Below, one piece after another: positions 2,846 through 62,171 of a stretch of DNA of 64,000 nt. The notes below the pieces were generated by a model. That model ran no database searches. It was given only the letters and a program-made list of their open reading frames with translations, and was not told the DNA's origin. Positions within the stretch are counted from its first letter, which is position 1. The number at the start of each line of letters is the position of its first letter. Where the stretch lies: positions 107,578 to 171,577 of the forward strand of contig JACPFF010000006.1 of NCBI GenBank assembly GCA_016183065.1, read 5' to 3'. A program made the translations under genes and the position numbers. The DNA comes from Deltaproteobacteria bacterium (GTDB lineage Bacteria > UBA10199 > GCA-002796325 > JACPFF01).

Positions 2846-4839
2846 GACCGCTCCGTTTGGTGCAATGCGTGCCAGGCCCGCAGTACTTCCGCCACGCTCC
2901 ACGCTTGGGCAATCGTCCCGCGTGGCCGATGTGGTGGTGCGGCATCAAACACTTCCGATACACTCCCCAAGCCGCGGATATAGGGATGTTCGAGGAAGAG
3001 GGGACGAAACTGCCGGAGGAGTGTCGTGCGCGTCGTCTCCCAATCTGTGGCCACACGTCGCTCGGCATCGACGTAGGCCCCGATCAGCCATGGCCAAATG
3101 GTCCCCTGGTGATAGGCCGCATCGCGTTCGGCCGGTCCTCCGACATAGGCCTTCCGGTAGGCCGGATGGTTCGGGGCCAGTGTCCGTAGGCCATAGGGGG
3201 TCACGAGATGCGTGCGGATTTGCTCCATGACCCCCTCTTGTTGATCCGCAGAGAGCGGTGACGCCGGAAGTGCGACGGCAAAGAGCTGGTTGGGTCGGAT
3301 GGCCGGATCTCCCCCGTGTTCATTGACGACATCCGCCAGAGCACGGGACTCCGCCAACCAAAACGTGGTGCCAAAACTGGTGTACATGGCATCAAGCGCC
3401 TGGGAGAGTCGTCCATCGATGGAAAGGCCCGCTTCAAGGGCGAGCGCCCGGTGAAAGAGGAGGGCATTGAACCAGAGGGCGTTGATTTCCACGGCGTATC
3501 CGTGCCGGGGCGTCACGGGGACCCCCTGGTCCTTGGCATCCATCCACGTCAACTGTGTGTCCGGGCTGCCGGTCCACAAGAGCCCCTGCGAATGGCACGC
3601 GACGTTGGGGACTGCGCCCGTGGCGTAGCTGTGCAACAGGTCCGTGATGAGCGGCAACCAGCGCTGCCGGAAGGCCGGGCGCTCCTTGGCGAGTGGCGCG
3701 AGTCGTTGCAGCGCCAAGATCATCCACAGGCTCGTATCGACGGCATTATAGGCATGATGCGATTCATCGATCGCCAAAAAATTGGGAATGACGCCGTGGT
3801 GTCGTCGCGACACAAAAGTCTGGAGGATCGGTTCGGCCATGGCTGCGAATCCGCAATGATAGGCCAGCCCGGGCACGGCGATCATGGCATCGCGACCCCA
3901 GGCATCGAACCACGGATAGCCGGCAAGAATGGCGGGTTCCCCGGAGGGATGGGTCATCACAAAGTCCTCGCCTTTCACCATAAGATGCCGGATGGGGAGC
4001 GGTGCATCCGTGAACGCATCCCACCGGGTCTCACGTCGGGTCACTTCGCGGGTCCATTGCTTTGCAATCGGCGCGTGTGGTTCTTGCAGTGTTGCGCGGA
4101 GAAAGAGCGTGTTTCCCCGGTGCAGGGTTGCCTCGAGGATGCCGGGGCAAAAGAGATCCTCTTGATAGGGAAATCCCCGCGCACGTTCCTTCAGATATTC
4201 GACGTTGTGGACCCAATAGGGCCCCGGATAGAAGACCGTTGCCGGCATGGTATCGAAAAAGAGTGGCGGCAACCCTTCGTAGGGGTGAATGGTATTGTAC
4301 GTGTCATGCACGAAGGTCCGGACGCGGAGCGCCATGTTTTGCCGCGTGAGCGCGTGAATGTTCCGGAAGGCGAGCCAGAGATGGAGTTGCAGCGTGACAG
4401 GAGACGAGGCCGACAAGACCTCGAAACGGAGGAGGAGCGTGTGTTCGCCGCGCACCAAGAGGAGCGCGCGGCGCAAACGGACGTCCCCGACCCGGTACGT
4501 GACTTCCGGATGGCAAAGAAATGCGGCCGATTCGATATATTGATGTCCGGTGGGATGAAAGACTCCCGGATATTTATTGGTGGAGAGGGGAAACGGTTTG
4601 CCGCCCAGCAGGAGGATCGGCTCGACTTTTGATACGAACAGTTGTCGCTCATTGACGGTCGCAACCGGGGCGCTGAGCAGACCATGGTATTTCCGCGTAT
4701 GACAATCGAGAATGGTACTCGAGGCATAGCCGCCACACCCGTCGGTTTCGAGCCACTCATGCCGGAGTGCGGACTCCAGATTGAGACACTCCTCCCGAGA
4801 AAAATTCGGCGGCTGCGATGTCGTCCGTTCCCCCTCCAT
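2842..4839 (-). CDS. glycogen debranching enzyme (amylo-alpha-1,6-glucosidase type)
   Basis: 665-aa ORF. The N-terminus (EWLETDGCGGYASSTILDCHTRKYHGLL) and the C-terminal GDE-like region (YHQGTIWPWL) are typical of bacterial/archaeal debranching enzymes. Confidence 0.8.
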   Translation of the reverse strand: MEGERTTSQPPNFSREECLNLESALRHEWLETDGCGGYASSTILDCHTRKYHGLLSAPVATVNERQLFVSKVEPILLLGGKPFPLSTNKYPGVFHPTGHQYIESAAFLCHPEVTYRVGDVRLRRALLLVRGEHTLLLRFEVLSASSPVTLQLHLWLAFRNIHALTRQNMALRVRTFVHDTYNTIHPYEGLPPLFFDTMPATVFYPGPYWVHNVEYLKERARGFPYQEDLFCPGILEATLHRGNTLFLRATLQEPHAPIAKQWTREVTRRETRWDAFTDAPLPIRHLMVKGEDFVMTHPSGEPAILAGYPWFDAWGRDAMIAVPGLAYHCGFAAMAEPILQTFVSRRHHGVIPNFLAIDESHHAYNAVDTSLWMILALQRLAPLAKERPAFRQRWLPLITDLLHSYATGAVPNVACHSQGLLWTGSPDTQLTWMDAKDQGVPVTPRHGYAVEINALWFNALLFHRALALEAGLSIDGRLSQALDAMYTSFGTTFWLAESRALADVVNEHGGDPAIRPNQLFAVALPASPLSADQQEGVMEQIRTHLVTPYGLRTLAPNHPAYRKAYVGGPAERDAAYHQGTIWPWLIGAYVDAERRVATDWETTRTTLLRQFRPLFLEHPYIRGLGSVSEVFDAAPPHRPRGTIAQAWSVAEVLRAWHALHQTERS

Positions 4840-4905
4840 ACTTCTTGCTCACTTCCGACAGCGCACGTTCATGATCATGCGCACGGCACGCGTTTTCCGC
4901 AATCA

Positions 4906-5118
4906 TCAATGGATCGACCGGTGGGCTTCCAGATAGAGACCGATTTCATCCCGGGCTTCCTGCGTGGTGACCCACTCTTGGAACCCCTGTAGTTCTAAAT
5001 TGTGCAGGAGCGAGAGCCATTCATCGTGATTCCAGCCACGGCGATCCCGTAGCCAGTCGTTCAGTTCTTTCTTCGGGAATCGTTTCCCTCCCCGTCGTTG
5101 TTGCAGTGCCAGTTGCAT
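4906..5118 (-). CDS. hypothetical small protein (70 aa)
   Basis: ORF 4906..5154. The internal ATG at 5118 is preceded by GGGAGGA at good spacing. No recognisable family. Confidence 0.45.
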   Translation of the reverse strand: MQLALQQRRGGKRFPKKELNDWLRDRRGWNHDEWLSLLHNLELQGFQEWVTTQEARDEIGLYLEAHRSIH

Positions 5119-5283
5119 CGGTTCCTCCCTCTTGGTGCGTGCGAGCCACGTCATCGTCTCCTCCTTAGGTGATCATGATAGTCAATCATTGTGTGGAATC
5201 GATCTTCATGCACCCGCACTCTATGCGCTGCTCTCCGTGCGATCGCAACAATATTTTGGTGAACTGTGGATCACGGTGTGCTG

Positions 5284-5916
5284 TTATGCGGCGAGAACCG
5301 GGAAGAGCATCTGGAGTCCCTCGGCAATAAATTCCACAGCAATGGCGGCCAGGATGAGTCCCATCACGCGGATGATGATGTTGAGGCCGGTCCGTCCGAG
5401 ACGACTGACGAGGGGGGTGGAAAAACGGAGCGAGAGAAAGACGATGGCCGCCACAAGGCAGATATTCCCGACCAAGATCAGATAGTCTTCCCAGGTATTG
5501 GCCTGGTGTCGATAGAGAATCACGGTGCTGATCGATCCCGGTCCTGCCAGGAGTGGAATGCCTAAGGGGACGACGGAAAATTCGGCCTTGTGTTGGACCT
5601 CCGCCCGTTCCTCCCGGGATTGCTTGGCGCCGGAGCGCCGTGCATGCAACATGGCAATGGCCATGAGGAGAATGAGAATGCCGCCGCCCACGCGAAACGA
5701 GGCAATACTGATCCCGAAAAAATGGAGAAGATGTTCGCCGGCAAAGGCCGCGATGAGCAAGACGACCACGACTGTGAGTGCCGTGGTCCTCGCGGCAATG
5801 GACCGCTCCCGGGATGGCAGGGCCTCCGAGAGCGAGGCAAAGATGGGAATCGCGCCCAACGGATTCAGGACCGCCACCAAGGCGGCAAAGAGTTTCAGAA
5901 AATGCGTGAATTCCAT
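5284..5916 (-). CDS. marC: MarC family (UPF0056) integral membrane protein
   Basis: 210 aa with multiple hydrophobic segments. The N-terminus (FAALVAVLNPLGAIPIF) is characteristic of MarC/UPF0056. Confidence 0.75.
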   Translation of the reverse strand: MEFTHFLKLFAALVAVLNPLGAIPIFASLSEALPSRERSIAARTTALTVVVVLLIAAFAGEHLLHFFGISIASFRVGGGILILLMAIAMLHARRSGAKQSREERAEVQHKAEFSVVPLGIPLLAGPGSISTVILYRHQANTWEDYLILVGNICLVAAIVFLSLRFSTPLVSRLGRTGLNIIIRVMGLILAAIAVEFIAEGLQMLFPVLAA

Positions 5917-6065: not shown

Positions 6066-7400
6066 ATGGAGAAGATCACCCTCGATATGACCGGTGTCTT
6101 GGCCGATGCCATCGGGGAGCCGCATGGTATCACCGCGCAGGAATGGGACGCCATGCTGCCGCGATTACGCACGGCGCAGCAGCGCCTTTGCGAACGGCAT
6201 GCCATGCATCAGCTCGGCTTTGCCGAACTCCCCTTTGATCAGGCGACGGTCGAGTCGATCCTGAAGGTTGCGCAGCAAGTCCGGTATCGCTTTGACCATG
6301 TGGTCGTTTTGGGCATTGGCGGATCGGCCTTAGGTCTGCGCGCCATGTTGGAGGCGTTGCTCAATCCGTCCGTTGTCATGCATGATAGCCTCGATCGGCG
6401 ATCGGTCCCGACGCTCTCCATTTTCGACAATGTCGATCCGGACGCCTTTGTCCCGGGTATTCAACAACTCGATTGGCGAATGACGTGCGTCAATGTCGTC
6501 AGCAAATCGGGAAAGACCGTGGAGACGGGGGCGCAATGGCTGATTGTGCGGGAGCTATTGCAGAAGCGATTCGGGTCGCAGCGATGGAAAGACCATGTCA
6601 TCGTGACGACAGATCCGGCCACCGGCCCGCTCCGGGCCATGGTGATTTGCGAAGGCCTCAGGAGTTTTGAGGTGCCACCCAATGTGGGGGGGCGATTTTC
6701 CGCATTGACGCCCGTGGCACTTTTTCCCGCCGCGTGTGCCGGCATTGATATTGCCGAGATGATCGCCGGCGCACAGGCCATGGCAGAGCGGTGTTTCAGC
6801 GAGGCCATCGAGGAAAACAGTGCCGCCCAGTTGGCCGGGATCCATTATCTCCTCGATACCGCGCACCAGAAGTCCATGGCGGTCATGATGCCGTATGCCC
6901 AGGCTCTGCGCCGTTTCACGGACTGGTATGTCCAGCTGCTGGCGGAGAGTCTGGGCAAGCAGGGGCTGGGGCAGACGCCGATCCCCGCCGTCGGGGCCAC
7001 GGACCAGCATTCTCAACTCCAGCTCTTTGTTGACGGGCCGAACAACAAGGTGGTCACCATCATGACTGTTGCCCATCACAATTGTGCGGTGACCATCCCG
7101 CACACGGATGAGCCGTCTTTTGCCTTTCTCGGCGGACACGACATGGCAACCTTGCTGCAGGGAGAGGCCATGGCCACGCGCCAGTCCCTGCAGGAGGCGC
7201 AGCGACCGACCCTCCATCTCCAGCTGCCGCGATTATCCCCGCACACCTTCGGTGCATTGCTCTTCTGCTATGAATGGCACGTTGCACTGTTGGGGGAGTT
7301 GTACGGGCTTAACGCGTTCGACCAGCCTGGCGTTGAACGCGGGAAACAGTTGACGCGCGAGCATCTCCGGCAGCAGCGACCAATGCCCTCCGTTGCGTGA
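6066..7400 (+). CDS. pgi: glucose-6-phosphate isomerase
   Basis: 444 aa. Motifs GIGGSALG, VSKSGKTVET, GGRFS and the C-terminal FDQPGVERGK are typical of PGI. Confidence 0.85.
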   Translation: MEKITLDMTGVLADAIGEPHGITAQEWDAMLPRLRTAQQRLCERHAMHQLGFAELPFDQATVESILKVAQQVRYRFDHVVVLGIGGSALGLRAMLEALLNPSVVMHDSLDRRSVPTLSIFDNVDPDAFVPGIQQLDWRMTCVNVVSKSGKTVETGAQWLIVRELLQKRFGSQRWKDHVIVTTDPATGPLRAMVICEGLRSFEVPPNVGGRFSALTPVALFPAACAGIDIAEMIAGAQAMAERCFSEAIEENSAAQLAGIHYLLDTAHQKSMAVMMPYAQALRRFTDWYVQLLAESLGKQGLGQTPIPAVGATDQHSQLQLFVDGPNNKVVTIMTVAHHNCAVTIPHTDEPSFAFLGGHDMATLLQGEAMATRQSLQEAQRPTLHLQLPRLSPHTFGALLFCYEWHVALLGELYGLNAFDQPGVERGKQLTREHLRQQRPMPSVA

Positions 7401-8265
7401 GTCCCTCCCCGACCATCTGCTGAATCGTCTGCCGGAGTTCCTCGGTGAGCGTATGAATCCGCAACGGATCCTGGAGGAGCTGTTGTGGCAGGCGGTCATA
7501 GCGGATCGGTTTTCCAAAGATCATGACCCATTGCGACGGGAGGGGGATGAGCCCCATTGGGCCGAGCCAGGGAAAGGTCGGGGTGATGGGAAGGAAGGGG
7601 AGGCCAAAAAGTTTTGCAAAGAGGTGGGTCTTCCACAGGATCGGATGGATCTCTTCTGCACCGACCACGGCGCACGGAATGATGGGGGTCCGCGTCCGGA
7701 TCGCCAACCGCACCACGCCACCCCGGCCGAAACGGGAGAGGCGATACCGGTCTTTGTACAGTTTGCTGATCCCCTTGACCCCCTCGGGAAATACCGTGAG
7801 GAGTTCGTCATGTTTGAGGAGGCGTTCCGCATTTTCCGGACAGGCGCGGACACCGCCGACCCGATTGAAGAACGTCCCGATGAACGGCAGATACTGGATC
7901 AAATCCTCGACCAGAAACCGGGTCATGCGATGCTGACGATGGTGCTTGAAGACGGCCATGTGAATCATCGCCCCGTCATAGGCGAGGGTGCCGGAGTGGT
8001 TGGCGACGATCAAGGCGCGTCCCTTGGCGGGAATATGATGCACCCCGCGGGCCTGGACCCGCCAATAGGTGTCATACATAAAATCGAACAGGGGACGGAC
8101 GCGTTCCATAAAGCCCAAGTCGCGGCCGAATTCGTCGACATCGTCATCCAGGGCGTTGGGCGCGGCAAACGAGTGCCAGGCGCGTGCGACATGCTCCAGC
8201 AATTCCAGTAACTGGGGATGGTCACGCACTGTCTGATGCAGCAGTGTCTTCAGTGGTGTCGTCAT
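7309..8265 (-). CDS. lysophospholipid / 1-acyl-sn-glycerol-3-phosphate acyltransferase family protein
   Basis: ORF 7309..8358. Carries the acyltransferase motifs ANHSG and FPEGVKG. Start chosen at MTTPLKTLL (8265). The 3' end overlaps pgi convergently by 92 nt. Confidence 0.7.
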   Translation of the reverse strand: MTTPLKTLLHQTVRDHPQLLELLEHVARAWHSFAAPNALDDDVDEFGRDLGFMERVRPLFDFMYDTYWRVQARGVHHIPAKGRALIVANHSGTLAYDGAMIHMAVFKHHRQHRMTRFLVEDLIQYLPFIGTFFNRVGGVRACPENAERLLKHDELLTVFPEGVKGISKLYKDRYRLSRFGRGGVVRLAIRTRTPIIPCAVVGAEEIHPILWKTHLFAKLFGLPFLPITPTFPWLGPMGLIPLPSQWVMIFGKPIRYDRLPQQLLQDPLRIHTLTEELRQTIQQMVGEGLTQRRALVAAAGDARASTVSRVQRQAGRTR

Positions 8266-9217
8266 GGCCTTGCCCTTCCTGAAAACTGAAGAGGACCTCC
8301 TGTAATGAATAGACGGGATGAAAGGCGAGCGCTTTTTTTGCCTTCTCCCCATCGGCAATGCAGGGATACTGCAAAAAATGGATGTGGGAGGGGGGCGTCG
8401 GTTGCAAATTCAGATGCCACAAGGTTTGAAAGGTGTTCCACAGCACGGCACGTGGCAGGGGAATCCGGACCTTGCCGACCGTGGCCAGTGCGCGGGAGAG
8501 TGGCAAGACGCCATCGCCGACGATATTGAATGCCCCGGCGGCATCTTTCTCAATCGCCAGGAGAAAGGCGCGCAGGACGTCGTTTTCGTGGACATATTGC
8601 ACCAGCGGATCAAAACCGAGCACGGTCGGAATGACCGGTTTTTTCAGCAGGTGTGTCTTGTAGTTGCGGATCTTGGGACCCAAGATCGTGCAGGGACGCA
8701 TGATGGTCACGACAGAGTGCGGATGCTGTCTGGCAAAGGTCGCGACCTGTTCCTCCACATCGATCTTGTCACGGAGAAACGCACTGAGACTGCCACCCCG
8801 CAGCGGATGCGTCTCCGACAGAAAGTTGGGATTGTCGGGAAAGGCGCCGTAGACTTCCGTCGTTGAACTCAGGATCACCTTGCGGATCTTGGCGGCATTC
8901 ACCGCGTGGAGCAGGTGCATGGTGCCGATCGACTGGAGTTCGTGCGAATATTCCTCGTGACGCTTCGGCTGGGAGTGGAGCGCGGCGTGGACCACGAGAT
9001 CGCACTGGTGCCGCCGCAGAATCTCCGCCAGGTGCTCGTTTGCGTATGGTGCCGTCAGGTCACAGTCGATACCTTCCACCCGCGGTGCGGTGATGGGCGG
9101 CGGCAGCCGGTCGATGGCGAGGCACCGCGGCCCCCGTTTGCGGCTCGACAAGGCCTCGAGGAGCATCTTGCCGATAAATCCGGTCGTGCCGGTGATGGCA
9201 ATGCTACGGTGCTTCAT
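8222..9217 (-). CDS. NAD-dependent epimerase/dehydratase (extended SDR)
   Basis: 331 aa with the N-terminal Rossmann motif ITGTTGFIGKML. Confidence 0.8.
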   Translation of the reverse strand: MKHRSIAITGTTGFIGKMLLEALSSRKRGPRCLAIDRLPPPITAPRVEGIDCDLTAPYANEHLAEILRRHQCDLVVHAALHSQPKRHEEYSHELQSIGTMHLLHAVNAAKIRKVILSSTTEVYGAFPDNPNFLSETHPLRGGSLSAFLRDKIDVEEQVATFARQHPHSVVTIMRPCTILGPKIRNYKTHLLKKPVIPTVLGFDPLVQYVHENDVLRAFLLAIEKDAAGAFNIVGDGVLPLSRALATVGKVRIPLPRAVLWNTFQTLWHLNLQPTPPSHIHFLQYPCIADGEKAKKALAFHPVYSLQEVLFSFQEGQGHDDTTEDTAASDSA

Positions 9218-9432
9218 GCGATGGCGGGGAGACTAGCATAGGGGCCATGGTCATCACAAGCAAACTGCGGGGGACATGAGAGTGAGATCGATGGGTTTTC
9301 ATCGAATAATTTTAGGTAGATCTAATGATGCTTCGTGGGCAAGGCTCTGTAGGTCCGCAAGACTCATTATCGGAAATGATATTGGCAATATTTAGTATTT
9401 ACAATTTCCGATATTACCGATATATTGCCAGT

Positions 9433-20713: not shown

Positions 20714-23686
20714 ATGAAACGTACGCTCCTCTTGTGGTTCCTCGGTGTTGTCCCGATCCTGTTCACTCCTCTCATGGCCACTGCCACAACCATTTCCGTC
20801 ACCGCTGGACAGGAAGTGCCACCGCAGACCAACGGCAACTGTGCCCTGAACGAGGCCTTTCTGGCGGCCAACGATGATGTAGCCGTGGATGCGTGTCCTG
20901 CCGGATCCGGTGCCGACATCATCCAGCTCCAAGCTGGAACCACGTACACCTTGGCGAAACCGAATGGATGGACGCAACCCGGGCTCCCAATGGTGACGGC
21001 GCCCCTGACTGTTGAGGGGAATGGTGCCACGATTGTCCGAGAGTCCGAGACGAAATTTCAGCTCCTGCGGATCTATACTGATGGGGTGACACTGAAGGGA
21101 CTGACGTTGCGGAGTGGGCAAGCTATTCCAGGGTGGGGTGGTGCCATCCTCTTTGGCTCGCAAGGCCTCCTGACCCTGGTTGACGTGACGGTCGCCGATT
21201 CCTGGGCGGATCGCGGCGGGGCCATCTTTGCGCAGGGCGATCTCTCATTGACGCGCACGACGCTGACCGCAAACAAGGCGAACGTACGCGGTGGGGCGAT
21301 TCATCATCAAGGGACTTTGGTGATGAGTGACAGTACGATCGAGAGCAATGAGGTGGTTGGTTCAGATTTTGGCGGTGGCGGGGTGTATAGCGAGAATACA
21401 GTCATCATCACCGGTTCGATACTTGCCGGAAACAGTTCCGGAGGGACGGGTGGTGCCCTGACGTTCTGGCCGATCGCCCCGGGGAAGTCCTGCACGGTCA
21501 CCGGAAGTTCCGTGGTGGAGAATTTTGGCCAATCGGGTGGCGGCCTCTACCTGCGGCCGGGCGGGGGAACGGTGACGATCACGGAGAGCGATATCAGTGG
21601 CAATATTGTGCAGGGGGGTGGCGGAGGGATCAAGCTCTATGCACCGAGTCTTGCCGAAAATAATACCGTGACCATTGCAAATAGCACGATTGCTGGGAAC
21701 GTCGCTGCCGTTACCCAGACTGGTGGTGGGATCTTTAACGCGGGAGTGGCCGTGACGCTCATCAACGCCACGGTCACACAAAACCAGGCCGAGCTGGGTG
21801 CCGGTCTCTATCAGTCGGAGACGGAGGTCGCAAAATTCCACAATGTGCTCCTCCTGAACAATGTATTGTATACCGGGGTGAACGGTGATTGTTTCCAGGG
21901 TGGAGGGGGTGGCATCTTTTCGCTGGGACATAATCTCGTCGGGACCACATGTCAGGGATTCACTCCTGAGGCGTCCGACCAGGTCCCTGAGGATCCCTCG
22001 CTCGCCGGTGTCGGAAATTATTTCCCGAGTCCCGAGGCCGGAAAGGGGCATTGTCTCTTGGGGGATGCCAGCCTGGCGCTCAATGCCGGCGACACAACGC
22101 GCTGCACTGATGCTGGCGATCTGCAATTGTCGCACGACCAGATCGGGCAGGCACGCAATGGCGCGTGCGATATCGGTGCGATTGAGGCCGTGTGTGGCGA
22201 TGAAATCCTCCATGTGTCGCTCGGCGAGGTCTGCGACGATGGCAATGCCGTTGGCGGTGATGGGTGCAGCGGGGATTGCTCGAAATTCGAGGTCTGCGGC
22301 GATGACACGCTCGATGGCGGAGAGGCCTGCGATGACGGAAATACGGCTGGAGGCGATGGCTGCAGCGCCGACTGCCTCAAAATCGAAATTTGCGGCGACG
22401 CGTTCCCTGACACGGGAGAGATCTGCGATGATGGCAATACCATCAGTGGCGATGGGTGCCGTGCCGATTGTGCAAAGCTGGAAATCTGCGGCGATGCAGT
22501 GCTCGATGCGGGCGAGGCCTGCGACGACGGCAATCAAAAACTCGGCGATGGATGCAACAAACAATGCCAGTTGGAAATCTGTGGCGATGGAAAAATCGAT
22601 CGCGGCGAAAAATGCGATGACGGGAATACTGTGGGCGGGGATGGCTGTAGCGCCAATTGCAAGAAGATCGAGCTCTGCGGCGATAGCGTGATCGACATGG
22701 GCGAGGCGTGCGACGATGGCAATCAGGTCAATACCGATGCCTGTCCCAATAGTTGCCAATCGCCACAGTGTGGGGATGGCATTGTCCAACAAAATGGGAT
22801 CGAGGCGTGTGATGATGGCAATCAGGTCAATACCGATGCCTGCCTCAATAATTGTATCCTGGCCGCCTGTGGCGACGGGGTGTTGCAGTCAGGCGTGGAA
22901 ACGTGCGACGACGGGAATACGGTCAGTGGCGATGGCTGCCGCGCCGATTGCCTCAAGACGGAAGTATGTGGTGATGGCCTTCAGGACGCGGGTGAGGCGT
23001 GTGATGACGGCAATAGCGTCCAGGCGGATGCCTGCCTCAATAATTGTATCCTGGCCGCCTGTGGCGACGGCATCGTCCGTGCGGGCATTGAACAGTGTGA
23101 TGATGCCAACCCCGACAACACTGATCCATGCATCGACACTTGCAAAACGGCCGCCTGCGGGGATGGGTTCATTCAAAAGGGCGTGGAGTCGTGCGACGAC
23201 GGCAATGCCGACGATGGCGACGCCTGCCCGGGGAATTGTCTCCTTGACCAATGCGGTGACGGCGTCATCAGTGTGGGTGAGGCCTGCGACGACGGCAATG
23301 CCGCGCAGACCGATGCCTGTCTGAACAGTTGCGTGGCAGCGACCTGTGGCGATGGTGTGCTCCAAACCGGCGTGGAGAGCTGTGATGACGGGAACGTCGT
23401 GGGTGGCGATGGGTGTTCCAGTGCGTGTGTCACAGAAGGGGGAGCACCGACTCAGGAAGATGAGAACGGTACGGCAGGTGACGCGAGCACGGAGAATGGG
23501 GACGTCTCCGCCGGTGCCGATGAAACCGCAGGCGAAGCAGGTGCGGCAGCAAATGGAGACGGCACGACCGATGGTGAGACGGGCGGCGCGCCGACTGACG
23601 AAACCGGTACCACCACCACGCCTTCAGAGACATCGAGTAGCAGTGAAGGTGGGAGCGGCGGCGGTTGCAGCCTGATGGTGCGCTAG
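20714..23686 (+). CDS. secreted beta-helix protein with 13 tandem Cys-rich (CGDG...CDDGN...GDGC) repeats, acidic linker and [10 protein letters not shown]-terminus
   Basis: ORF 20699..23686. The ATG at 20714 is preceded by AAAGGA. Signal peptide [35 protein letters not shown] (CSLREA-like) is followed by GGAI/GGGI-type beta-helix rungs, then Myxococcus-type cysteine-rich repeats. Confidence 0.8.
22193..23432 (+). repeat. intragenic tandem array: 13 units of about 95 nt encoding the Cys-rich repeat
   Basis: 13 CGD-initiated units counted in the translation. Identical DNA blocks occur at 22715-22743 / 22814-22842 (29 nt) and at 22835-22878 / 23027-23070 (44 nt). Confidence 0.85.
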
Positions 23687-24321
23687 CCCTGCTGGAAGCA
23701 CTTGATGACATCATCCGAGGGGACCGCGCCCTCCCGGATAATCGCCATGGTTTCGTCCGCAATATCGATGACCGTCGAGCCGCGGCTCGCAATGCATTCG
23801 CCCCCGTCGACAATGCAATCAATCCGGTCCTGAAAATAGCGACGGACATGCCGGACCTCGAGTGATGGCGGATAGCCGGACAAGTTGGCCGAGGTCGTCG
23901 TCATCGGTCGTCCGAATTGGCGCACCATCGCCGTGGCAATGGGATGCGACGAGATCCGGATACCGATTTTCCCGGTGTTCGTGGTCAGGCTCCGCGAGAT
24001 CGTTTCCGCCGCGGAAAAACAGATCGTGAGGGGCCCGGGCCAGAATCGGCGCATCATCAGGCGGGCAGGGTCGGGAATGGCCGTCACGCAGTGTGCAAGC
24101 ATCGGCATGTCCGCCACCAGGAGCGCAATCGGCAGGCCCTGATCGCGCCGCTTCAATTCATAGAGTCGCTTGATGGCCCGCTCATTGCTAAAATCGACAC
24201 CCAGGCCGTAAAACGTCTCCGTCGGATACGCCACGACGTGGCCGTTGCGCAAAAAATCGACAGCCTGTTCAATGAGGTCCTCTTCTGGGGCACGCGGATG
24301 GATATGCAAGATCTCTGTCAT
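23683..24321 (-). CDS. tsaC: L-threonylcarbamoyladenylate synthase (YrdC/Sua5/TsaC family)
   Basis: 212 aa. Motifs [25 protein letters not shown] and SANLSG are present. Confidence 0.85.
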
Positions 24322-43414: not shown

Positions 43415-45721
43415 CTACAGGATGAGGCTGCAGCCACCGCCATTTGCGGTCGGGGCGGCGGGTGGATCCGGTATTGGCTCCGGCTCCGTACCCGGATCGA
43501 TGGGTCCCTCCGGCGTTTGGGGGGTCGTGGGGTCGGGTGCCGTGAACGACGGCGCGTCGGCGATTGGATCAGCGCTGGTGAGGCCACCCTCCGGCTCGTC
43601 CGCTGCCAAGAGTAGCTCTTGCGCCGTCACCACGGGGTCATTGCCGACGTCTTCTTCCTCTCCAGGGACCCCGTCCTTCGGATAGGTATTGGTGATGATG
43701 TTCTCCAAGTTCGGAAAAATCGGTGCGGTGAACGACGGCACTTCGCCCGCCCGTTGATAGGAGAGTATGACGGCGGCGAAAGGCTCCGGGCCTCCGCCTC
43801 CTAGTGTCCAGATGTCACAAGAAATTTTGTCGGACTGGTACTCACAGGACGTCATCAGAGGGAAAAATTTTTGCTCAGGCCCATCGGTTCGACCATACGA
43901 CTGGAGACGCTCATGATCATTATCATCCAGATTCGTCCCCGTGGGGCGCGGCACACTGAAGACGAGATCTGCCCTTGTTATCTTTCCCGACTCTCCCGAG
44001 ACTTTCTGGGACACTGTTGGTGAAAACCCTCCCATGTCAATAGCCGGAGAACGTGCTATTCCCCCCCCCTTTGCGATCAGGGACGAGCCATGCTTTGACT
44101 CTGACGTGATCTGGTCGGCACGGAAGGTCAATCGACTGAAGACGGAGCTTATGTTTGACGTTCCGAATTGAGGCGGCGGCGCAAAAAACAGAATCCCCCC
44201 CTTGGCGTTCCCACCGACATAGATCTCCCCCTTGGGGTCCCAAGGATCGGCCGTCTGCGACCCCACCACATGAAACCCGTCGGCCCCTCCTGACACGTAG
44301 ATACCGTAGCCGGTGTTGTCGATGGCCGCACCACTCACCGCCACATTCTCTCCCGTGACGAGCATGCCATGGCCCACGGTCTTCGTCGTCCCGTTCTGGC
44401 TGGTGTGTAGATAGCGGAGTGCAACATTCGACCCGCTGACACAGAGACCGGTGGTGGGAAAGCTGTGGACCATGAGGCCTTCAATCGTCGTGTGATCCTG
44501 TGCAATCTCCACGGCACATTGATGATTGTCGGAATAATCTGCCGCGGGTCGCACGATGAGCCGCCGAATGCTGTCTCCCTGTTCGGGCAGGTCGATCGAC
44601 AAGGCGGCGGCGTTTTTGCTCTCAATGCGCAGTGGGTGATGTAGCTCGACGACGATCGGGGCGTTCGCACTCTCTAGAGGAGTGAGAGACTGGGCGGTCA
44701 CAAACTGCAAGACCGCGGCGTCCGCACAGGTCTTCAGGACGAGTTCAAGCTCCCATTGATCGATCTGCAACGTGTCTCCAACTTGAACCACAGTGACCCT
44801 GCAGGCGTGCTCGTCGTCAATATTCACCCGTGGAATCATTTTTTTCGCTGTCGCATTCCAATGACAATAATAATACTCGGCCGTGCCAAGGTCCTTATCC
44901 TCATCCTCAAATGGGAGCGAACATAACTGGGATTTCGTGACGAAGTCCCTCACACACGCCTTGAATCCGCCATCGCACAAGCCACTGACAACGGGCTGAC
45001 ACTCTTTGTTTGTGAGGTCCCATCCGTCGTTAGAGCGAACATAGCATTTCGCCTTCTGGGTCCTCTGACAAACAATGCCGATCGAATCGACGCGCTCCCC
45101 CGCGTGTCCGTAGACGCCTGTCATCACACTGCCAGATGGGCACTCTATACTGCTATCAGAAAGGTACGTAGGACCATCAGCGTCACACTCTGATTTTCCG
45201 ACGCTCTTCTTCGGAAATTCTATCCCATTACCGAAGGGCCATATCTGACCCAGAACCGGCTTCCCATTGCCAGTATAATCACATCGCTTCGCCCCAATAC
45301 CGGTGAAAAACTTCACACCCGTGTCGCTCGTAAGTGAGTATTTTTCTCCACCCTCCCCGCCCGTATCGCCGGGACCCGTGACGGGATACTCATACAGTAT
45401 TTGAACTCCCAGTGGGTTGAGCGGACTGCAATAGATACTGTCGATGCGATCAATATTATCGCCGGCGTGTACCGCTAACCCCGCGACCGCCATCGGCATA
45501 CCTTGGGGGCCGATCGGACACTTTCTGAAAAAGAGGGTCGGATCGCCGCCATCCGACCCGATGAGACACTCGGTGAAGGATCCCTTACAGGGGAATCCAT
45601 CAAGTATAGGAAAGACCTGCTCACCTAACACCTGATAGGCGTGACCTGCCGTTCCCCACAGGACCATAACCAGCCAACAGGCTATTGCTGTGCCCCGCCG
45701 TGTTATCGAAGCCGTCTTCAT
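43415..45721 (-). CDS. secreted Cys-rich orphan protein with beta-helix-like core, acidic/Pro-rich linker and GGGCSLIL C-terminus
   Basis: ORF 43415..45736. The ATG at 45721 follows GGAGGAGG. Signal peptide MKTASITRRGTAIACWLVMVLWGTAGHA. Duplicated HAG(D/E)..D.I..C motif. C-terminal PDPTTPQTPEGPIDPGTEPEPIPDPPAAPTANGGGCSLIL. Confidence 0.75.
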   Translation of the reverse strand: MKTASITRRGTAIACWLVMVLWGTAGHAYQVLGEQVFPILDGFPCKGSFTECLIGSDGGDPTLFFRKCPIGPQGMPMAVAGLAVHAGDNIDRIDSIYCSPLNPLGVQILYEYPVTGPGDTGGEGGEKYSLTSDTGVKFFTGIGAKRCDYTGNGKPVLGQIWPFGNGIEFPKKSVGKSECDADGPTYLSDSSIECPSGSVMTGVYGHAGERVDSIGIVCQRTQKAKCYVRSNDGWDLTNKECQPVVSGLCDGGFKACVRDFVTKSQLCSLPFEDEDKDLGTAEYYYCHWNATAKKMIPRVNIDDEHACRVTVVQVGDTLQIDQWELELVLKTCADAAVLQFVTAQSLTPLESANAPIVVELHHPLRIESKNAAALSIDLPEQGDSIRRLIVRPAADYSDNHQCAVEIAQDHTTIEGLMVHSFPTTGLCVSGSNVALRYLHTSQNGTTKTVGHGMLVTGENVAVSGAAIDNTGYGIYVSGGADGFHVVGSQTADPWDPKGEIYVGGNAKGGILFFAPPPQFGTSNISSVFSRLTFRADQITSESKHGSSLIAKGGGIARSPAIDMGGFSPTVSQKVSGESGKITRADLVFSVPRPTGTNLDDNDHERLQSYGRTDGPEQKFFPLMTSCEYQSDKISCDIWTLGGGGPEPFAAVILSYQRAGEVPSFTAPIFPNLENIITNTYPKDGVPGEEEDVGNDPVVTAQELLLAADEPEGGLTSADPIADAPSFTAPDPTTPQTPEGPIDPGTEPEPIPDPPAAPTANGGGCSLIL

Positions 45722-46188
45722 CACAACCTCCTCCATAGGCTCACGTGCCCCATGGCGTCATAAAAATCAGCAAATCCTATGCCAAGAGAAACAGACGCCG
45801 GATCGACACGTTATACGAACTCAATGGCCAGGCATGGGATATACGGACGCCAATGGCGGGAACTCAGGACCTCAGCCGGGATGTGGTGTGTCCACATAGG
45901 GAATGCAGGACTATCGAGCTATCGGGCGAACTATCGGGGACGTTTCTCCCCATCTCAAGGAACTACAATCACTATGGTTTCTGATGGTGCTGACGATTTT
46001 CATCTGTTGCAAACCCGGTCGCATGGGGCAAGCAGATCGAGGAGTGCATGGGGGGAGAACCGTCTTCGAGAACACTCGGCAACTTTTTTGCCACTTTTGC
46101 CCATCTCCTTGCTAAGAGCCTCCCGTGATCGATTTCCTTGCACTGAAACCGTTGGCGGGAGGGGTGAGCCTCTTGTCGGAGTGTTTGC

Positions 46189-52854: not shown

Positions 52855-54177
52855 ATGCGCGGATTACACGGCGGGTGGAAATGGGTTGCAGCGGTGGTGA
52901 TGTCGGCCATCGGGATCTCGGCTGCGCATGCGCTGGATAAACGGCCGGATATGTCGCTCCTCGATCCCACCACCGACGGGGGTCGATACATGAGCGTGCA
53001 CGACGCCGAGACCTTTTTACAGGGTCGTTGGAGCGTCGGTTTTTATCTCGATTATGCCCGCAAGCCGCTCGAACTGCGCAATCTGACCACCAATCAGCGG
53101 TTCGATATCGTCCGCGACGCCCTGAACGTTCATTTCACCGGTGCCTATGGCATTACCGACTGGGTGAGTGTCGGGGCCGCGGTCCCGGTGACCCTGTGGC
53201 AGGTCTTTTTTGATCCGAACCAGCAGCGCATTACGCTCGGCAATGCCCCGAAACAGCAAAAGGCGGGGCTGGGGGATATTCGTCTGGAGTCGAAGTTCCG
53301 ACTCCTCGATATTGAACGATACAACATTGGCGTGGCGGTCATTCCGCACATGATCTTTCCTTCGGGGCGCAAGGGGACATTCATCAGCGGGGAACGGTGG
53401 ACCCCTGGCGTGAAGTTCGCCGTGGAAGGGAATGTCCGGGATAAATTTTTTGTTGGCGGGAATATTGGCTATCAATATGTGAACAAGTCGAACCAGTTTT
53501 TTGCCGGGAATCCCAATGCGATCATCAACGATCTCATTACCCTCGGACTCGGCGCGCGCGTCCAGGTGACCGATGAGTGGGCGATTCTCGGAGAGGTCCT
53601 CTCGGAAACCCTGGCGAAGAGTTTCTATAAGCACGCCACACAGAGCCCCACGGAAATCCTCGGTGGTGTCCAATATGCGCCGCAACGTGGGGCCGCGCGC
53701 GGACTGGCCATGACCCTGATGGGTGGTGGCGGTATCACCCGTGGTGTGGGCGCGCCCCAGGCCCACGTCATTCTCGGCGTGACCTATCCGACGCCGAAGA
53801 TTGTCAAGGAGTATGAACCAAAGGTGCAGGTGCAAGAGAAGATCGTGATTACGCAGAAGATCCACTTTGCCTTTGACTCGGCAGTCATTCGACCGATTTC
53901 GTATCCCATTCTGGACGATGTGGCACAGATTCTCCGGACAAATGCCCACATTGCCCATGTCCAGGTTGAGGGACATACCGACTTTATCGGAGGCGACGAA
54001 TACAATCTGTCGCTGTCGCGACGGCGGGCGGCGTCGGTCGTCGACTATCTGGTCAAGGCCGGCATTGAGCGGCACCGGTTGGAACCCGTCGGTTATGGCG
54101 AGTCTCGTCCCATCGCTGATAATCGGACCGATGAAGGTCGGGCAAGAAATCGGCGGACGGAATTCACCATCCAGTAG
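52855..54177 (+). CDS. OmpA-family outer-membrane protein (N-terminal beta-barrel + C-terminal OmpA domain)
   Basis: Signal peptide, beta-rich N-domain and a C-terminal OmpA_C sequence (FAFDSAVI...NLSLSRRRAASV...NRRTEFTI). Confidence 0.85.
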   Translation: MRGLHGGWKWVAAVVMSAIGISAAHALDKRPDMSLLDPTTDGGRYMSVHDAETFLQGRWSVGFYLDYARKPLELRNLTTNQRFDIVRDALNVHFTGAYGITDWVSVGAAVPVTLWQVFFDPNQQRITLGNAPKQQKAGLGDIRLESKFRLLDIERYNIGVAVIPHMIFPSGRKGTFISGERWTPGVKFAVEGNVRDKFFVGGNIGYQYVNKSNQFFAGNPNAIINDLITLGLGARVQVTDEWAILGEVLSETLAKSFYKHATQSPTEILGGVQYAPQRGAARGLAMTLMGGGGITRGVGAPQAHVILGVTYPTPKIVKEYEPKVQVQEKIVITQKIHFAFDSAVIRPISYPILDDVAQILRTNAHIAHVQVEGHTDFIGGDEYNLSLSRRRAASVVDYLVKAGIERHRLEPVGYGESRPIADNRTDEGRARNRRTEFTIQ

Positions 54178-54190
54178 TACAGCGACGATT

Positions 54191-56250
54191 ATGCCACCAG
54201 CCGTTGCGGCATCACCTGAAGAGACGCTCGTTCAATATGTCAAGGGGGTCGGTCCGCGACTTGGCAATCTGCTCAAAAAATTGGGCATTGTCACGGTTGC
54301 CGATCTCCTCTGGCATCTGCCAGCCCGGTATCTCGATTTTCGTGCCATCAGCCGTACCGGGATGCTCAGGCCAGGACAACATCAGATCGTCATCGGGACC
54401 ATTGTCACCGGGGGGATCGGCGTTCTGGGACGTCGCCGGCGGCGCATCTTCGAGATGATCGTGGATGATGGTTCGGGTCCGATCGCGGCAAAATGGTTTC
54501 ATTTTCATCAGGCCTATCTCAAGGCCTTCTGTGTGCCGGGGAGCACGGTCATGTTGAGCGGCGATGTCTCCGAGTTTGCGGGCGTGCCGCAATTTGTCCA
54601 TCCAGAGATCGAGGTGTGGGATGAAGAACGTGCGCCGACCTCGGCTGCACGCTTGGTCGCGCTCTATCCCGCGACCGAAGGGGTGACACAACGGACGCTG
54701 CGTCGCGTGATGCATAACGCGCTGGCGCAATATGGTGCCGCGTTGGCGACCATTCTCCCCGCGGCGCTGTTGCACGCGCATCAACTCCTTCCCCGCGCAG
54801 CAGCGGTACAGATCGTGCATGATCCACCGCCGGAGACCGATCTGGAGGCCCTCCAGGCGCGGCGCAGTGCCGCCCATCGGACGCTCATTTTTGAAGAGGT
54901 CTTTCTCCTCGAATTGGGGCTCGCCGTGCGGCGGGCCATGACCGCGCGCGAGCTGGGCATTGCGTTTGCGCACGATCACGGAGCGGTTGTCCGTTTGCGC
55001 GCGGCACTCCCCTTTGCCCTGACTGAGGCGCAGGATCGGGTCGTGTGCGATGTCATTCGTGACATGGCGCGTCCGACACCGATGCGGCGGATGGTCCAGG
55101 GCGATGTGGGGAGCGGGAAGACAGTCATTGCCGCCATGGCGGCTGCACAGGCGATCATGGCCGGGTATCAAGTGGCCGTGATGGCGCCTACGGAGATCCT
55201 GGCCGAGCAACATTTTGCCACGATGACGCCCTGGTTTTCCGCCCTCGGCATCCCGTTGGGATTCCTCAGTGGTGGCGTGCGTAGCGCAGACCGTCGCACG
55301 ATGCTTCGACAACTCGCACAGGGAGAATTGCCGCTGGTGGTGGGTACCCATGCCCTGCTTGAAGCCGATGTCCACTTTCGACAATTGGGACTGGTGGTCG
55401 TCGATGAACAGCACCGCTTTGGGGTCGAACAACGGTTGGCATTACGCCATAAAGGGACGGAGTGCCCGGATATGTTGATTTTGACCGCAACTCCCATTCC
55501 ACGCACACTGGCCATGACGGCGTATGGGGATCTCGATCTCTCGGTCATTGATATGATGCCACCCGGTCGGAAACCGGTCGTGACCAAGCACTACCGCGAA
55601 TCGCAACGAGACCAGTTGTATGCCGGGATGCGGAAAGAACTCTCGCGGGGGCACCAGATCTATGGCGTCTATCCCCTCGTGGCCGAGAGTGAAAAAGTGG
55701 ATCTGAAGAATGCGACGGATATGGCGTGCCATCTGGCGGGCGTCTTTGGTCCCACCTATCCGGTAGCCCTCCTCCATGGTCAGATGCCGGGACGCGAGAA
55801 AGAGGCCATCATGCGACGGTTTGTCACGGGCGACGTAAAAATTCTGGTGACCACGTCGGTCGTGGAAGTCGGGGTCGATGTGCCGAACGCCTCCGTCATG
55901 GTGATCGAACATGCCGATCGTTTCGGGCTGGCACAATTGCATCAATTACGCGGACGGGTGGGGCGGGGCTGCAGCGTATCCGGCTCATGACCGAGACCCA
56001 CGACGGATTTCGCCTGGCCGAGGAAGACCTCAAGATGCGCGGTCCCGGCGAGTTCATGGGGACGCGACAGTCCGGGCTGCCGGAGCTCCGCATCGCGCGT
56101 CTGGGCGAAGATGCCCCGATCATTGCCGAGGCCCGTCAGGCGGCCTTTGCCCTCATTGACGAAGATGCCCGTCTGACCCGTCATCCAGCCCTTCGGCAAG
56201 CGGTGCTGGCGCGGTGGGGGCACAAGTTGCAACTGTCGCTCATTGGGTGA
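54191..56250 (+). pseudogene. recG: ATP-dependent DNA helicase RecG, interrupted after motif VI (frameshift plus missing segment near 55967-55990)
   Basis: Frame A (start MPPAVAASPEETLVQYVKGVGPRL at 54191) carries the wedge and helicase motifs up to QLRGRVGRG, then stops after CSVSGS at 55990. The conserved RecG C-terminus (RLMTETHDGFRLAEEDLKMRGPGEFMGTRQSG...) continues in another frame from about 55969 to 56250. Confidence 0.7.
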
Positions 56251-56301
56251 AGGTTCTCCGCCGCAACAGCGGGGCAATGCGATGTCGATAATAGATTGAG
56301 C

Positions 56302-56444
56302 GGGGGACGTGGGCCCCACGTCCCAGCCGCACCGCGGCGTTGAGGGCGACGACCGAGTCCGGGCACCCAGCGCGCCCCGCGCGCGAGAGGGGGGGACCCA
56401 ACGGGCTTTGCCCGTTGGGGGGGCGACGTGAGCCCCTCCAATAG
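56302..56444 (-). repeat. GC-rich mosaic intergenic repeat, copy 7 (core unit + linker + terminal hairpin, reverse orientation)
   Basis: Reverse complement equals the core unit with hairpin CCCAACGGGCAAAGCCCGTTGGG (56397-56419), then CCCGGACTCGGTCGTCGCC and GGGACGTGGggcCCACGTCCC (56304-56324). Confidence 0.85.
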
Positions 56445-56480
56445 TGTCGCTACATGATGACACCACGTGAGGCATCTGGT

Positions 56481-57062
56481 ATGCTGAAATATGTGAAGAC
56501 ATGGACACGCATCTCCCTGATTGTTCTGCTTGGCTGGTCCGCTGGGGCCCATTCGGTCCATGCCACTTCGCTCCTCCCGGCACCCGCTGATCGCCTGGTC
56601 CGCGACGCTGACATCATCCTGATTGGCGAGTGCGCCAAGGTCACGAGCGTCCCCTATACCTCACCATTGGGATTTTCGCGGCAGATCGATACCTGGACCT
56701 TTCATCTGCAGGACGTCTTGAAAGGGGATCTCACCCCCGGCGATTTTTCCTGGAAGCAGATGGGCGATCGCTACGAGATCGGCAAGAGCTATCTCCTCTT
56801 TCTCTCACGGCTGCACGATGTCCACGACCTGATGTCGCCGGTGGGGAAGATGCAGGGGAGTTTTGAAGTCCGGGCCGACGGATCTGTCGTGAATCGGCTC
56901 GGCAACCAATTTTTACTCCAGGGCATTGAAGAACGGGTGCCACCAGCGCAGGCCGGGGTGGCCAAAGGGATCCGCGTGGAAATGGATCAGCGCCAGGGGG
57001 CGATCTCACTTGAGAGCATGAAGGCACTGATCCGTTCGCTGAAGGATCGTGTGACACCATGA
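56481..57062 (+). CDS. secreted hypothetical protein (193 aa), co-transcribed with the metalloprotease
   Basis: Start MLKYVKTWTRISLIVLLGWSAGAHSVHA (signal peptide). ATGA overlap with the next gene. Confidence 0.6.
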   Translation: MLKYVKTWTRISLIVLLGWSAGAHSVHATSLLPAPADRLVRDADIILIGECAKVTSVPYTSPLGFSRQIDTWTFHLQDVLKGDLTPGDFSWKQMGDRYEIGKSYLLFLSRLHDVHDLMSPVGKMQGSFEVRADGSVVNRLGNQFLLQGIEERVPPAQAGVAKGIRVEMDQRQGAISLESMKALIRSLKDRVTP

Positions 57063-58369: not shown

Positions 58370-58411
58370 TCAGCTTGTTTTCACCAGCGAGATCTGCTAG
58401 AGCTGCGGACC

Positions 58412-59866: not shown

Positions 59867-59907
59867 TCGATGCACCAACACATGAGGAAAGCACAAGGGA
59901 GGGGAAT

Positions 59908-61390: not shown

Positions 61391-61516
61391 CGGGGGTATA
61401 GTGGCTCCCTGCTGGTGAGATGTCAAGCCTCGATCCATGGGCTCGATCCATCATTGATAAGAGATCTGTTATCGTGATACACTCTACGGATGCAATCTCG
61501 GGGGAGAGACGGAGGA

Positions 61517-61948: not shown

Positions 61949-62171
61949 GATCTGACGAGGGAAGAATCCGTCGCCCATAGCCGTGATGTGGCCAACAGTT
62001 GACCCTGCCAATAGTACTTGCCTTCCCTATTTCAATCGTGTTAGCCGTCCCGGCGAACTTCGCACACTCGCTTTTCCTTTTGGTCCAGCGAAGATAATGA
62101 GTGATTACGCTGGTTTGGGTTGCCGTGTGGTGCCCCATTGCGAGTGGAGGCCAACCGAAAGGAGTTTCGTC

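Follow-up and report, generated by a model that had tools for sequence, protein, structure and literature searches.

The stretch of DNA examined here, referred to as the window, comprises 64,000 nucleotides of contig JACPFF010000006.1 from a Deltaproteobacteria bacterium (assembly GCA_016183065.1), and three of its genes (genes 1, 2, and 3; Table 1) encode exported proteins that end in nearly the same short, cysteine-containing tail. This tag is real, conserved at the protein level, specific to C-termini, restricted to signal-peptide proteins, present in at least seven families, and interchangeable with tripartite cysteine-type signals. On balance, the tail and the disordered spacer that carries it are interpreted as a genuine general-purpose C-terminal sorting or anchoring tag, i.e. 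a helix-less cysteine-type signal of the MYXO-CTERM class that is proposed to be lipidated on its Cys and trimmed by a CPBP protease. Judged by its sequence, the tag most likely corresponds to the signature motif alone of a MYXO-CTERM/JDVT-CTERM-class tripartite signal, without the helix and the Arg/Lys cluster.

Three exported proteins with a common C-terminal tail

A preliminary description of this DNA had reported three unrelated signal-peptide proteins with nearly identical ends, and the open reading frames (ORFs), tails, signal peptides, and differing families were all confirmed. According to family scans the three carriers are mutually unrelated, consisting of a beta-helix/DUF4215 protein, an orphan, and a metalloprotease. 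Gene 1 is composed of an N-terminal beta-helix/CSLREA-like region, 13 DUF4215 (myxo_disulf_rpt) repeats, the spacer, and the short Cys tag (TIGR02232, 3.7e-92 over 13 stretches; PF13948, 7.1e-55). The final residues of genes 2 and 3 are TANGGGCSLIL and KKTFGCTFVLP, respectively, the gene 3 tag being the most divergent of the three with Phe at both -2 and +2 relative to the Cys. Sec-type signal peptides are present on all three proteins, with cleavage at MKTASITRRGTAIACWLVMVLWGT/AGHA in gene 2 and at MRHLVRMTMLGCVCGCFLLLPRLLHA/GGPW in gene 3, and a mature start of TT in gene 1. The window is part of a metagenome-assembled genome (HYV02_ locus tags), and its MlaE, MlaD, and OmpA genes mark the host as a diderm.

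Each tail had been described as following a disordered, D/E/T/P/G-rich spacer of 40-90 aa, and this layout was recovered, with spacers of 73, 84, and 38 aa in genes 1 to 3 (97%, 81%, and 76% D/E/T/P/G/S/A/N, respectively). The start originally given for the feature, 23434, was one base out of frame; the gene 1 spacer and tag together occupy 23438-23686. In the AlphaFold2 (AF2) model of gene 3, which is of low confidence (mean predicted local distance difference test score, pLDDT, of 56.7; 8 sequences), residues 391-436, i.e. the last 46, have a pLDDT of 22-33 and are predicted to be disordered.

The core GC[ST][LF][ILVM] was found within the last 12 residues in 3 of the 208 six-frame ORFs of at least 100 aa, against an expected 0.0115, and had no internal occurrence in the 47,864 residues of the window ORFs. 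None of 2000 composition-matched shuffles reached three terminal matches. Furthermore, the three genes are packed tightly on their neighbors. The gene 1 stop overlaps the 3' end of a convergent TsaC-like gene (23683-24321, minus strand), leaving no room for a helix after the tag, while mazG starts 18 nt after gene 2 and nfeD starts 42 nt after gene 3, and no helix with a basic cluster is encoded downstream of the three genes in any frame. Truncated MYXO-CTERM domains are ruled out by this packing and by the lack of a helix and basic cluster in the downstream frames, as is readthrough or a frameshift into a helix. A DNA-level repeat as the source of the shared tail is ruled out by differing codons. 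The view that the tail is helix-less, and not an ordinary MYXO-CTERM domain, is thus sustained, in this window and in many independent assemblies. That the tails are alike by chance, or through an error of assembly or annotation such as the truncation of genes, could draw on the post hoc definition of the motif from three sequences and on the divergence of the gene 3 tag. However, this explanation is already refuted by the terminal excess and the tight downstream gene packing, by the independent occurrence of the tag in dozens of assemblies (NCBI, ENA, JGI, Logan), and by synonymous-codon variation indicative of protein-level selection, and is given practically no credence.

The NCBI version of gene 2 is a 512-aa protein with an internal GTG start (MRDFVTK...) and without a signal peptide. 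This deposited start is probably wrong, because the reading frame (window 43415-45736, minus strand) stays open for another 256-261 codons upstream, as far as an ATG that begins a clear signal peptide.

Conservation and consensus of the tag

Over 39 non-redundant short tails, the consensus is [SG]-G-G-C-[ST]-L-[IVLM]-x(1-3)-COOH. The Cys is present in 39/39, Gly at -1 in 38/39, Leu at +2 in 37/39, an aliphatic residue at +3 in 36/39, and Ser or Thr at +1 in 33/39, with Gly or Ser at -2 and S, G, A, or K at -3. Four residues follow the Cys in 11 tails, five in 17, six in 5, and seven to ten in 6, and none of the tails has three. The terminal residue varies widely (R, P, Q, L, Y, E, D, N, H, S, F).

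As anticipated for a true signal, the spacer diverges among orthologues of genes 3 and 1 (28-49% identity) but the tag is retained. All eight gene 3 homologues at 34-49% identity retain the Cys tag, with the ends GCSLILQ, GCSLITP, SCSLIVR, GCSLLKP, GCTLIPQ, GCTLVIGHRGS, and GCSLMR. In the family alignment (A1) Cys431 of gene 3 is invariant, C260 and C369 being the sole other invariant Cys residues, and the 30-40 residues preceding Cys431 are unalignable. More distant protease homologues (28-32% identity), found in a Pseudobdellovibrionaceae metagenome-assembled genome (MAG) and two 'Pseudomonadota' MAGs, end in SSGCSLIVR, GGCSLIRQP, and GGGCSLVQ. Similarly, the closest gene 1 homologues end in GGCSLVR, GGGCSLIIR, and GGGGCNLLMPE, and a more distant DUF4215 homologue has a MYXO-CTERM-like tripartite tail that scores below the NCBIfam cut-off. 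The homologue search with gene 2 recovered only gene 2 itself.

The codons of the tag vary (TGC/TGT; AGC/AGT/TCT/TCA/TCG; CTG/CTC/CTA/TTA). Since different synonymous codons are used across genomes of 38-62% GC, it is the peptide and not the DNA that is under selection. Restriction of the tag to signal-peptide proteins had been suggested as a test, and 43 of 44 tag carriers pass a crude signal-peptide test, the 44th having a visible signal peptide by inspection. The users of the tag are mostly uncultivated diderm lineages, whose MAGs bear the labels 'Deltaproteobacteria', Bdellovibrionota, and 'Pseudomonadota'. Besides the source MAG, assemblies with the tag include GCA_040960315.1, GCA_016210045.1, GCA_041643055.1, and GCA_052033505.1.

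Many beta-helix homologues of gene 1 have another ending, R-P-Q-G-x-x-C-D-[IL]-G-A-x-E plus a few residues (P0017, P0018, P0027, P0041, P0050, P0060, P0083, P0106, and P0129), and are from Chloroflexota where source names are given. This ending is seemingly the end of the choice-of-anchor-Q domain and unrelated to the short tag.

Exchange of short and tripartite tails in the protease family

A profile of the gene 3 protease family was searched against 1.84 billion representative proteins, and the C-termini of the 150 best hits were read. Approximately 31 of these 150 representatives carry the short tag, and 46-49 carry tripartite tails with an invariant Cys, a hydrophobic helix of 15-25 residues, and an Arg/Lys cluster. 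The tripartite tails very often share the C-S-L core, e.g. KKGWCSLIPGSSSGFAPIFFLIPAILIALLRRKRSF, KSCSLIPDS...RRKR, PKGCSLLPSS..., and KKGWCSLIP followed by a helix and RRKR, and the short tails GGGCSLIP, SGCSLIPY, and GGCSLIPR stop approximately where the spacer between motif and helix starts in the long form. The -1 Gly and the +2 Leu are better conserved in short tags than in tripartite tails.

In a neighbor-joining (NJ) tree of the catalytic domains, short-tag proteins, the window protein included, form one deep clade of 18, whose representatives at no more than 50% identity keep the motif. Short-tag leaves also turn up within tripartite clades, in six or more separate places, and in one case a protein ending in GGCQLILP neighbors one with KKGWCQLERT and a helix, the unusual Gln being common to both. 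Tandem paralogues of the two kinds follow a single partner gene (described below) in locus L011, one with the tripartite tail KKGWCMSVGAP...RRRLK and one with the short tail GGCSLIRQP, and the loci L091 (short) and L093 (tripartite) have the common synteny partner-protease-(IspG)-ProS-PyrF. Still more distant homologues have GlyGly-CTERM-, T9SS-, and dockerin-like tails in the same place, as judged by eye and not by model scores. From these comparisons, the short tag and tripartite Cys signals are interchangeable in the protease family, and it is by such replacement of tails, the 'choice of anchor' pattern, that sorting signals at C-termini are recognized.

Tripartite relatives gave only sub-threshold MYXO/JDVT/Synerg/PGF matches. 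Among them, tails of the form K-K-G-W-C-[S/M]-[L/S]-x-[P/A]-G followed by a helix and an R/K cluster were observed in P0140-P0258, L011 (8508-9962), and L093 (7091-8572). These tails reached no NCBIfam sorting-domain cut-off (JDVT-CTERM, 15.5 bits with a cut-off of 27; MYXO-CTERM, 8-11 bits with a cut-off of 20) and may be a further undescribed flavor of Cys-type tripartite signal.

Generality of the tag in metagenomes

The JGI metagenome collection was scanned for DNA encoding G-G-C-S-L-[IVM]-[R/S] followed by TRR, using a codon-restricted pattern (TGC AGC CTN) that samples a few per cent of tags and favors GC-rich genomes. The scan yielded 71 matches, including 52 with a true stop, and most fell in reading frames open for fewer than 100 codons, as random matches would. 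Thirteen of the 52 true-stop matches, representing 11-12 distinct genes, end ORFs of 195 to more than 2181 codons. By chance, approximately 0.3-0.4 gene ends would be expected, a figure given by amino-acid frequencies and, as an independent estimate, by the number of internal matches with Trp after them. The enrichment of the tail proposed in the preliminary description was therefore found, at approximately 30-fold for gene ends, and in a viral-contig control the single match did not lie at the end of a gene.

A signal peptide is present on all scan carriers with a complete N-terminus, and a G/T/S/D/E-rich spacer on most. The carriers include a beta-helix and thrombospondin-type-3 (TSP3) protein of more than 2181 aa, several DUF4215 proteins, a LivJ-like periplasmic binding protein, an NHL-repeat propeller, two Pfam-less families, and a member of the protease family. 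Considered against the operational criteria of Haft for a generic C-terminal sorting signal, one motif is found on at least seven unrelated families, three carriers lie within 64 kb, and the motif is replaceable in homologues; of the tripartite architecture of prokaryotic sorting signals, the motif alone is present. Five scan matches came from one metagenome and four from another, and such numbers from so narrow a pattern imply many carriers per population.

Five independent contigs of metagenome Ga0247727 each contain a short-tag gene (L115, L120, L124, L142, L148, and L166 are among its loci), and in L120 short-tag DUF4215 genes lie side by side (585-2264 and 3761-5557, plus strand), which suggests large paralogous sets of short-tag genes per genome. 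An ABC substrate-binding protein of the LivJ type (Peripla_BP_6, E = 1e-90) is encoded in L134 (41-1270, plus strand) and identically in L138 (2100-3329, minus strand), where a branched-chain amino-acid permease gene is located approximately 7 kb away. Its C-terminus reads ...PENEGGCSLVR, and there is hardly any spacer. Should the tag be a lipid anchor, this carrier would represent a binding protein tethered by its C-terminus, in what is probably a diderm.

Protease operon and genomic context

A conserved partner gene lies immediately upstream of the protease gene in all cases, whether the protease tail is short or tripartite. The 4-nt overlap of partner and protease was present where checked (the window, L003, L007, L011, L091, and L094), and identity over the seven partner copies is 21-39% (alignment A2). 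The partner gene belongs to the protease operon and not to the tag, and it could encode an inhibitor, a chaperone, or a pro-domain-like protein. The order OmpA-like, recG, partner, protease, nfeD, band-7, two small Pfam-less genes, rpsB, and tsf is kept in the window (52855-63985) and in L003, a 1.0-Mb contig of GCA_040960315.1 with an extra MIP/AhpC insertion relative to the window. L003 continues past the window end with pyrH, frr, uppS, and cdsA, the first two of which are also found in L001. Because gene order is shared by the window and L003, the protease locus is, on the basis of synteny, vertically inherited core genome and not an island.

A gene for a 907-aa PDZ and S41 tail-specific protease (6544-9267, minus strand) adjoins the partner-protease operon divergently in L091, and a rhomboid gene is located approximately 7 kb downstream in L007 (10990-12123) and in L096 (8585-9700), on the plus strand in both. 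As each is confined to one lineage, these neighbors are probably coincidental.

Table 1. Locations of the three tag-carrying genes, their parts, and the partner gene with its copies (window coordinates unless a locus is named).
Feature	Location	Strand	Description
Gene 1	20714-23686	+	990 aa, exported; alternative ATG 20699; NCBI MBI2343086.1
Signal peptide of gene 1	20714-20785	+	From reading of the sequence; passes crude signal-peptide test
DUF4215 repeat array of gene 1	22193-23428	+	13 repeats, Cys-rich, acidic; from family scans
Spacer of gene 1	23438-23656	+	73 aa, low complexity, G/T/E/D/A/S-rich; 97% D/E/T/P/G/S/A/N; one hydrophobic residue
Short Cys tag of gene 1	23657-23686	+	GGGCSLMVR and stop; Cys codon TGC 23666-23668
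Gene 2	43415-45721	-	768 aa, exported orphan, weak beta-helix match; alternative ATG 45736; C-terminus PPAAPTANGGGCSLIL before stop
Spacer of gene 2	43442-43693	-	84 aa, P/E/D/T/A-rich; 81% D/E/T/P/G/S/A/N
Short Cys tag of gene 2	43415-43441	-	GGGCSLIL and stop
Partner gene	56454-57062	+	202 aa, secreted, no Pfam match; stop overlaps gene 3 start by 4 nt
Gene 3	57059-58369	+	436 aa, exported HExxH matrixin-like metalloprotease; C-terminus GAKKTFGCTFVLP before stop
Spacer of gene 3	58229-58342	+	38 aa; 76% D/E/T/P/G/S/A/N
Short Cys tag of gene 3	58343-58369	+	FGCTFVLP and stop
Partner copy in L003	9420-10004		
Partner copy in L007	2361-2981		
Partner copy in L091	9414-10004		
Partner copy in L094	4692-5327		
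Partner copy in L011	7894-8511		
Partner copy in L093	6370-7098		

Proposed mechanism and alternative explanations

Cys-type tripartite signals pair with CPBP/Rce1-type glutamic intramembrane proteases (Haft 2023, 10.1101/2023.06.07.544157; Guo, Haft & Wall 2025, PMC11980579). Experiments have established that MrtX cleaves MYXO-CTERM and that this cleavage depends on the Cys, and a separate enzyme, with Lgt as the leading candidate, is presumed to lipidate the Cys (PMC11980579); the sorted proteins then reach the surface via the type II secretion system (10.1101/2023.06.07.544157; PMC11980579). By analogy with these systems, from which we infer lipidation, cleavage, enzyme, and final location alike, a tagged protein would be exported by Sec with removal of the signal peptide, and the invariant Cys would receive an S-linked lipid on the periplasmic side of the inner membrane. 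In this step the Gly residues before the Cys would resemble lipobox positions -1/-2, and the Leu-hydrophobic patch after it would act as the 'aaX'. A myxosortase-like glutamic intramembrane protease of the CPBP/Rce1 type, encoded elsewhere, would then cut off the 4-6 residues distal to the Cys, and the protein would remain tethered to a membrane or the cell surface by its lipid-Cys, which would now form the C-terminus beyond the 40-90-aa spacer. A more specific form of this proposal, held only tentatively, is a native extracytoplasmic counterpart of CaaX, in which an 8-residue helix-less tag would be Cys-lipidated and trimmed by an orphan CPBP/Rce1-type protease, giving lipid-anchored surface or periplasmic proteins. 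If true, prokaryotic CPBP proteases would have in the tag their first natural short substrate, and the tag would form an evolutionary bridge from tripartite MYXO-CTERM-type signals to CaaX.

Several observations weigh against a lipidated and trimmed sorting tag. As the preliminary description had stated for sortase-like and CPBP genes, Pfam scans found no CPBP, rhomboid, or sortase gene in the window, where the only multi-helix ORFs are MarC, MlaE, NfeD, and a 7TMR-HD-type protein (the latter identified by synteny with L003). No CPBP was present among the Pfam-scanned multi-helix ORFs of 20-odd related loci, which comprised MarC, MlaE, NfeD, TauE, EamA, MntP, MFS, cytochrome b, and ion-channel proteins; myxosortase genes are not expected to be linked to client genes (10.1101/2023.06.07.544157). 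It is not obvious how a helix-less, soluble periplasmic substrate would remain at the membrane, within reach of membrane-embedded enzymes, until it is modified. The residue at -1 differs by type, being Gly in 38/39 short tags and Trp, Phe, or Lys in most tripartite tails, and given this difference the two may be read by different enzymes. Furthermore, the NJ tree is without support values and the number of tail switches is approximate, and approximately 156 kb of flanks around 10 other short-tag genes held no further short-tag gene, making the number of carriers per genome uncertain. The ABC binding-protein carrier (L134/L138) suggests periplasmic membrane tethering, not obligatory surface export.

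Four other explanations were weighed. It is rather unlikely that the Cys is used covalently or in redox chemistry without a lipid, forming a disulfide or thioether to an anchored partner or another copy with no proteolysis, such that the G-G and S-L-hydrophobic flanks are a docking site and the proteins are tethered or multimerized. This would suit an invariant tail Cys that is the odd one out beside C260 and C369, a tag exposed on a disordered spacer in the AF2 model, and the lack of a processing enzyme nearby. However, the tag exchanges with tripartite Cys, helix, and Arg signals, relatives of which are CPBP-cleaved (PMC11980579), and the strongly conserved post-Cys residues with a stop no more than 10 residues away look like an enzyme recognition or leaving-group motif. 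Also judged unlikely are released isoforms, where short tails would be truncated tripartite signals on soluble or secreted proteins and the motif would be vestigial or serve a step shared with anchored paralogues, e.g. secretion-system recognition. Short and tripartite forms do interleave on the tree, and the L011 tandem paralogues of both kinds would suit an anchored and released pair, but a vestige would decay, whereas the deep clade of 18 retains the motif, the -1 Gly and +2 Leu consensus is sharper in short tags than in tripartite tails, and the tag is found in unrelated families with marked enrichment at gene ends.

A hydrophobic tag near the C-terminus might also be a ligand for a protease or PDZ domain that reads C-termini (Prc/CtpA-type S41, DegS-like), marking proteins for processing or quality control, and the PDZ and S41 gene beside the L091 operon would fit. 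This is very unlikely, since the last residues and the distance from Cys to end (4-10) vary, conservation follows the Cys rather than the carboxylate, the S41 neighbor occurs in one locus only, and the motif is also internal, ahead of the helix, in tripartite relatives. Matrix metalloproteases use a Cys switch, and gene 3 is an HExxH metalloprotease whose C-terminal Cys could in principle sit on the catalytic zinc and keep the matrixin-like protease latent. We consider this highly improbable, as non-proteases carry the tag (DUF4215/beta-helix protein, orphan, binding protein, NHL propeller, and TSP3 giant), which excludes a Cys switch as the general explanation, and the low-confidence AF2 model of gene 3 has no tail packing.

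If the short tag is the sorting signal favored here, a conserved and widely used tag consisting of the Cys motif only would mean that the helix is dispensable for this signal class, and it would offer orphan bacterial CPBP/'CAAX protease' homologues a plausible natural substrate. The tag would also give sharper focus to the search for the enzyme that lipidates Cys-type signals, an 8-residue peptide being far easier to test as a substrate than a membrane-embedded one. With a profile for the tag, many proteins now called 'hypothetical' in uncultivated deltaproteobacterial and Bdellovibrionota lineages would be re-annotated as tethered to the surface or a membrane, and the short tag could serve display or lipidation engineering.

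Comparison with known sorting signals

To our knowledge, the prokaryotic C-terminal sorting signals described so far are all tripartite (motif, membrane helix, basic cluster). No sorting-domain match was found in NCBIfam (June 2026 release) with full proteins at E<=1 or with isolated tails at E<=10. The literature on MYXO-CTERM, myxosortase, periplasmic CaaX-like signals, and tag peptides held no description of the tag within an incomplete coverage that makes an earlier description elsewhere possible. Cys-type sorting signals are already known, and the description of this tag is new among the NCBIfam models and literature searched.

The tag resembles MYXO-CTERM (TIGR03901; MrtX/MrtC/MrtP) in its C-terminal position on Sec-exported proteins after a disordered spacer, in its invariant Cys, usually with Gly before it, and in its occurrence on many unrelated proteins, including DUF4215 (myxo_disulf_rpt) proteins, with the enzyme not encoded beside its clients. 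Unlike MYXO-CTERM, the short tag has neither a membrane helix nor an Arg cluster, 4-10 residues (mostly 4-6) follow the Cys, and S/T-L-aliphatic follows the Cys where MYXO-CTERM has G-C/S-G. There is no TIGR03901 match at E<=10, so that the curated cut-off of 20 bits is not reached, and the source lineages are outside the cultivated Myxococcota/Bradymonadales as far as record names tell. JDVT-CTERM and CGP signals likewise have an invariant Cys in a short signature motif, but all are tripartite, with DP before the helix (JDVT) or C-G-P (CGP), and none of the matches attains a curated cut-off. GlyGly-CTERM (rhombosortase) is also a C-terminal tag on secreted enzymes, including proteases, and some gammaproteobacterial gene 3 homologues have, by eye, a GlyGly-CTERM-like tail in place of the tag. 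In contrast to the tag, GlyGly-CTERM has no Cys, requires a membrane helix, and is attached via the new C-terminus rather than a side chain.

Like the N-terminal lipobox (Lgt/LspA), the tag has an invariant Cys after small residues (Gly at -1 in 38/39; Gly/Ser at -2) and a hydrophobic stretch adjoining the Cys. It differs from the lipobox, [LVI][ASTVI][GAS]C, in that it is C-terminal and not in a signal peptide, its hydrophobic residues come after the Cys, and -3 is S/G/A/K, not Leu. The likeness to a CaaX box drawn at the outset stands in part. Like the eukaryotic CaaX box (Rce1, CPBP family), the tag is a short Cys motif at the C-terminus that lacks a helix and has a few residues, mostly aliphatic, after the Cys, while the strict CaaX rules on Cys position and the +1 residue do not hold, as 4-10 residues, never 3, follow the Cys, and +1 is Ser/Thr in 33/39 and not aliphatic, with +2 and +3 aliphatic. 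Moreover, tag carriers are Sec-exported, so modification would be extracytoplasmic, where cytosolic prenyltransferases are not expected to act. The CPBP superfamily that trims CaaX also cleaves bacterial Cys-type sorting signals, and, as Haft notes, a single protease superfamily serves both long signals (MYXO-CTERM) and short ones (CaaX) (Haft 2023; 10.1101/2023.06.07.544157).

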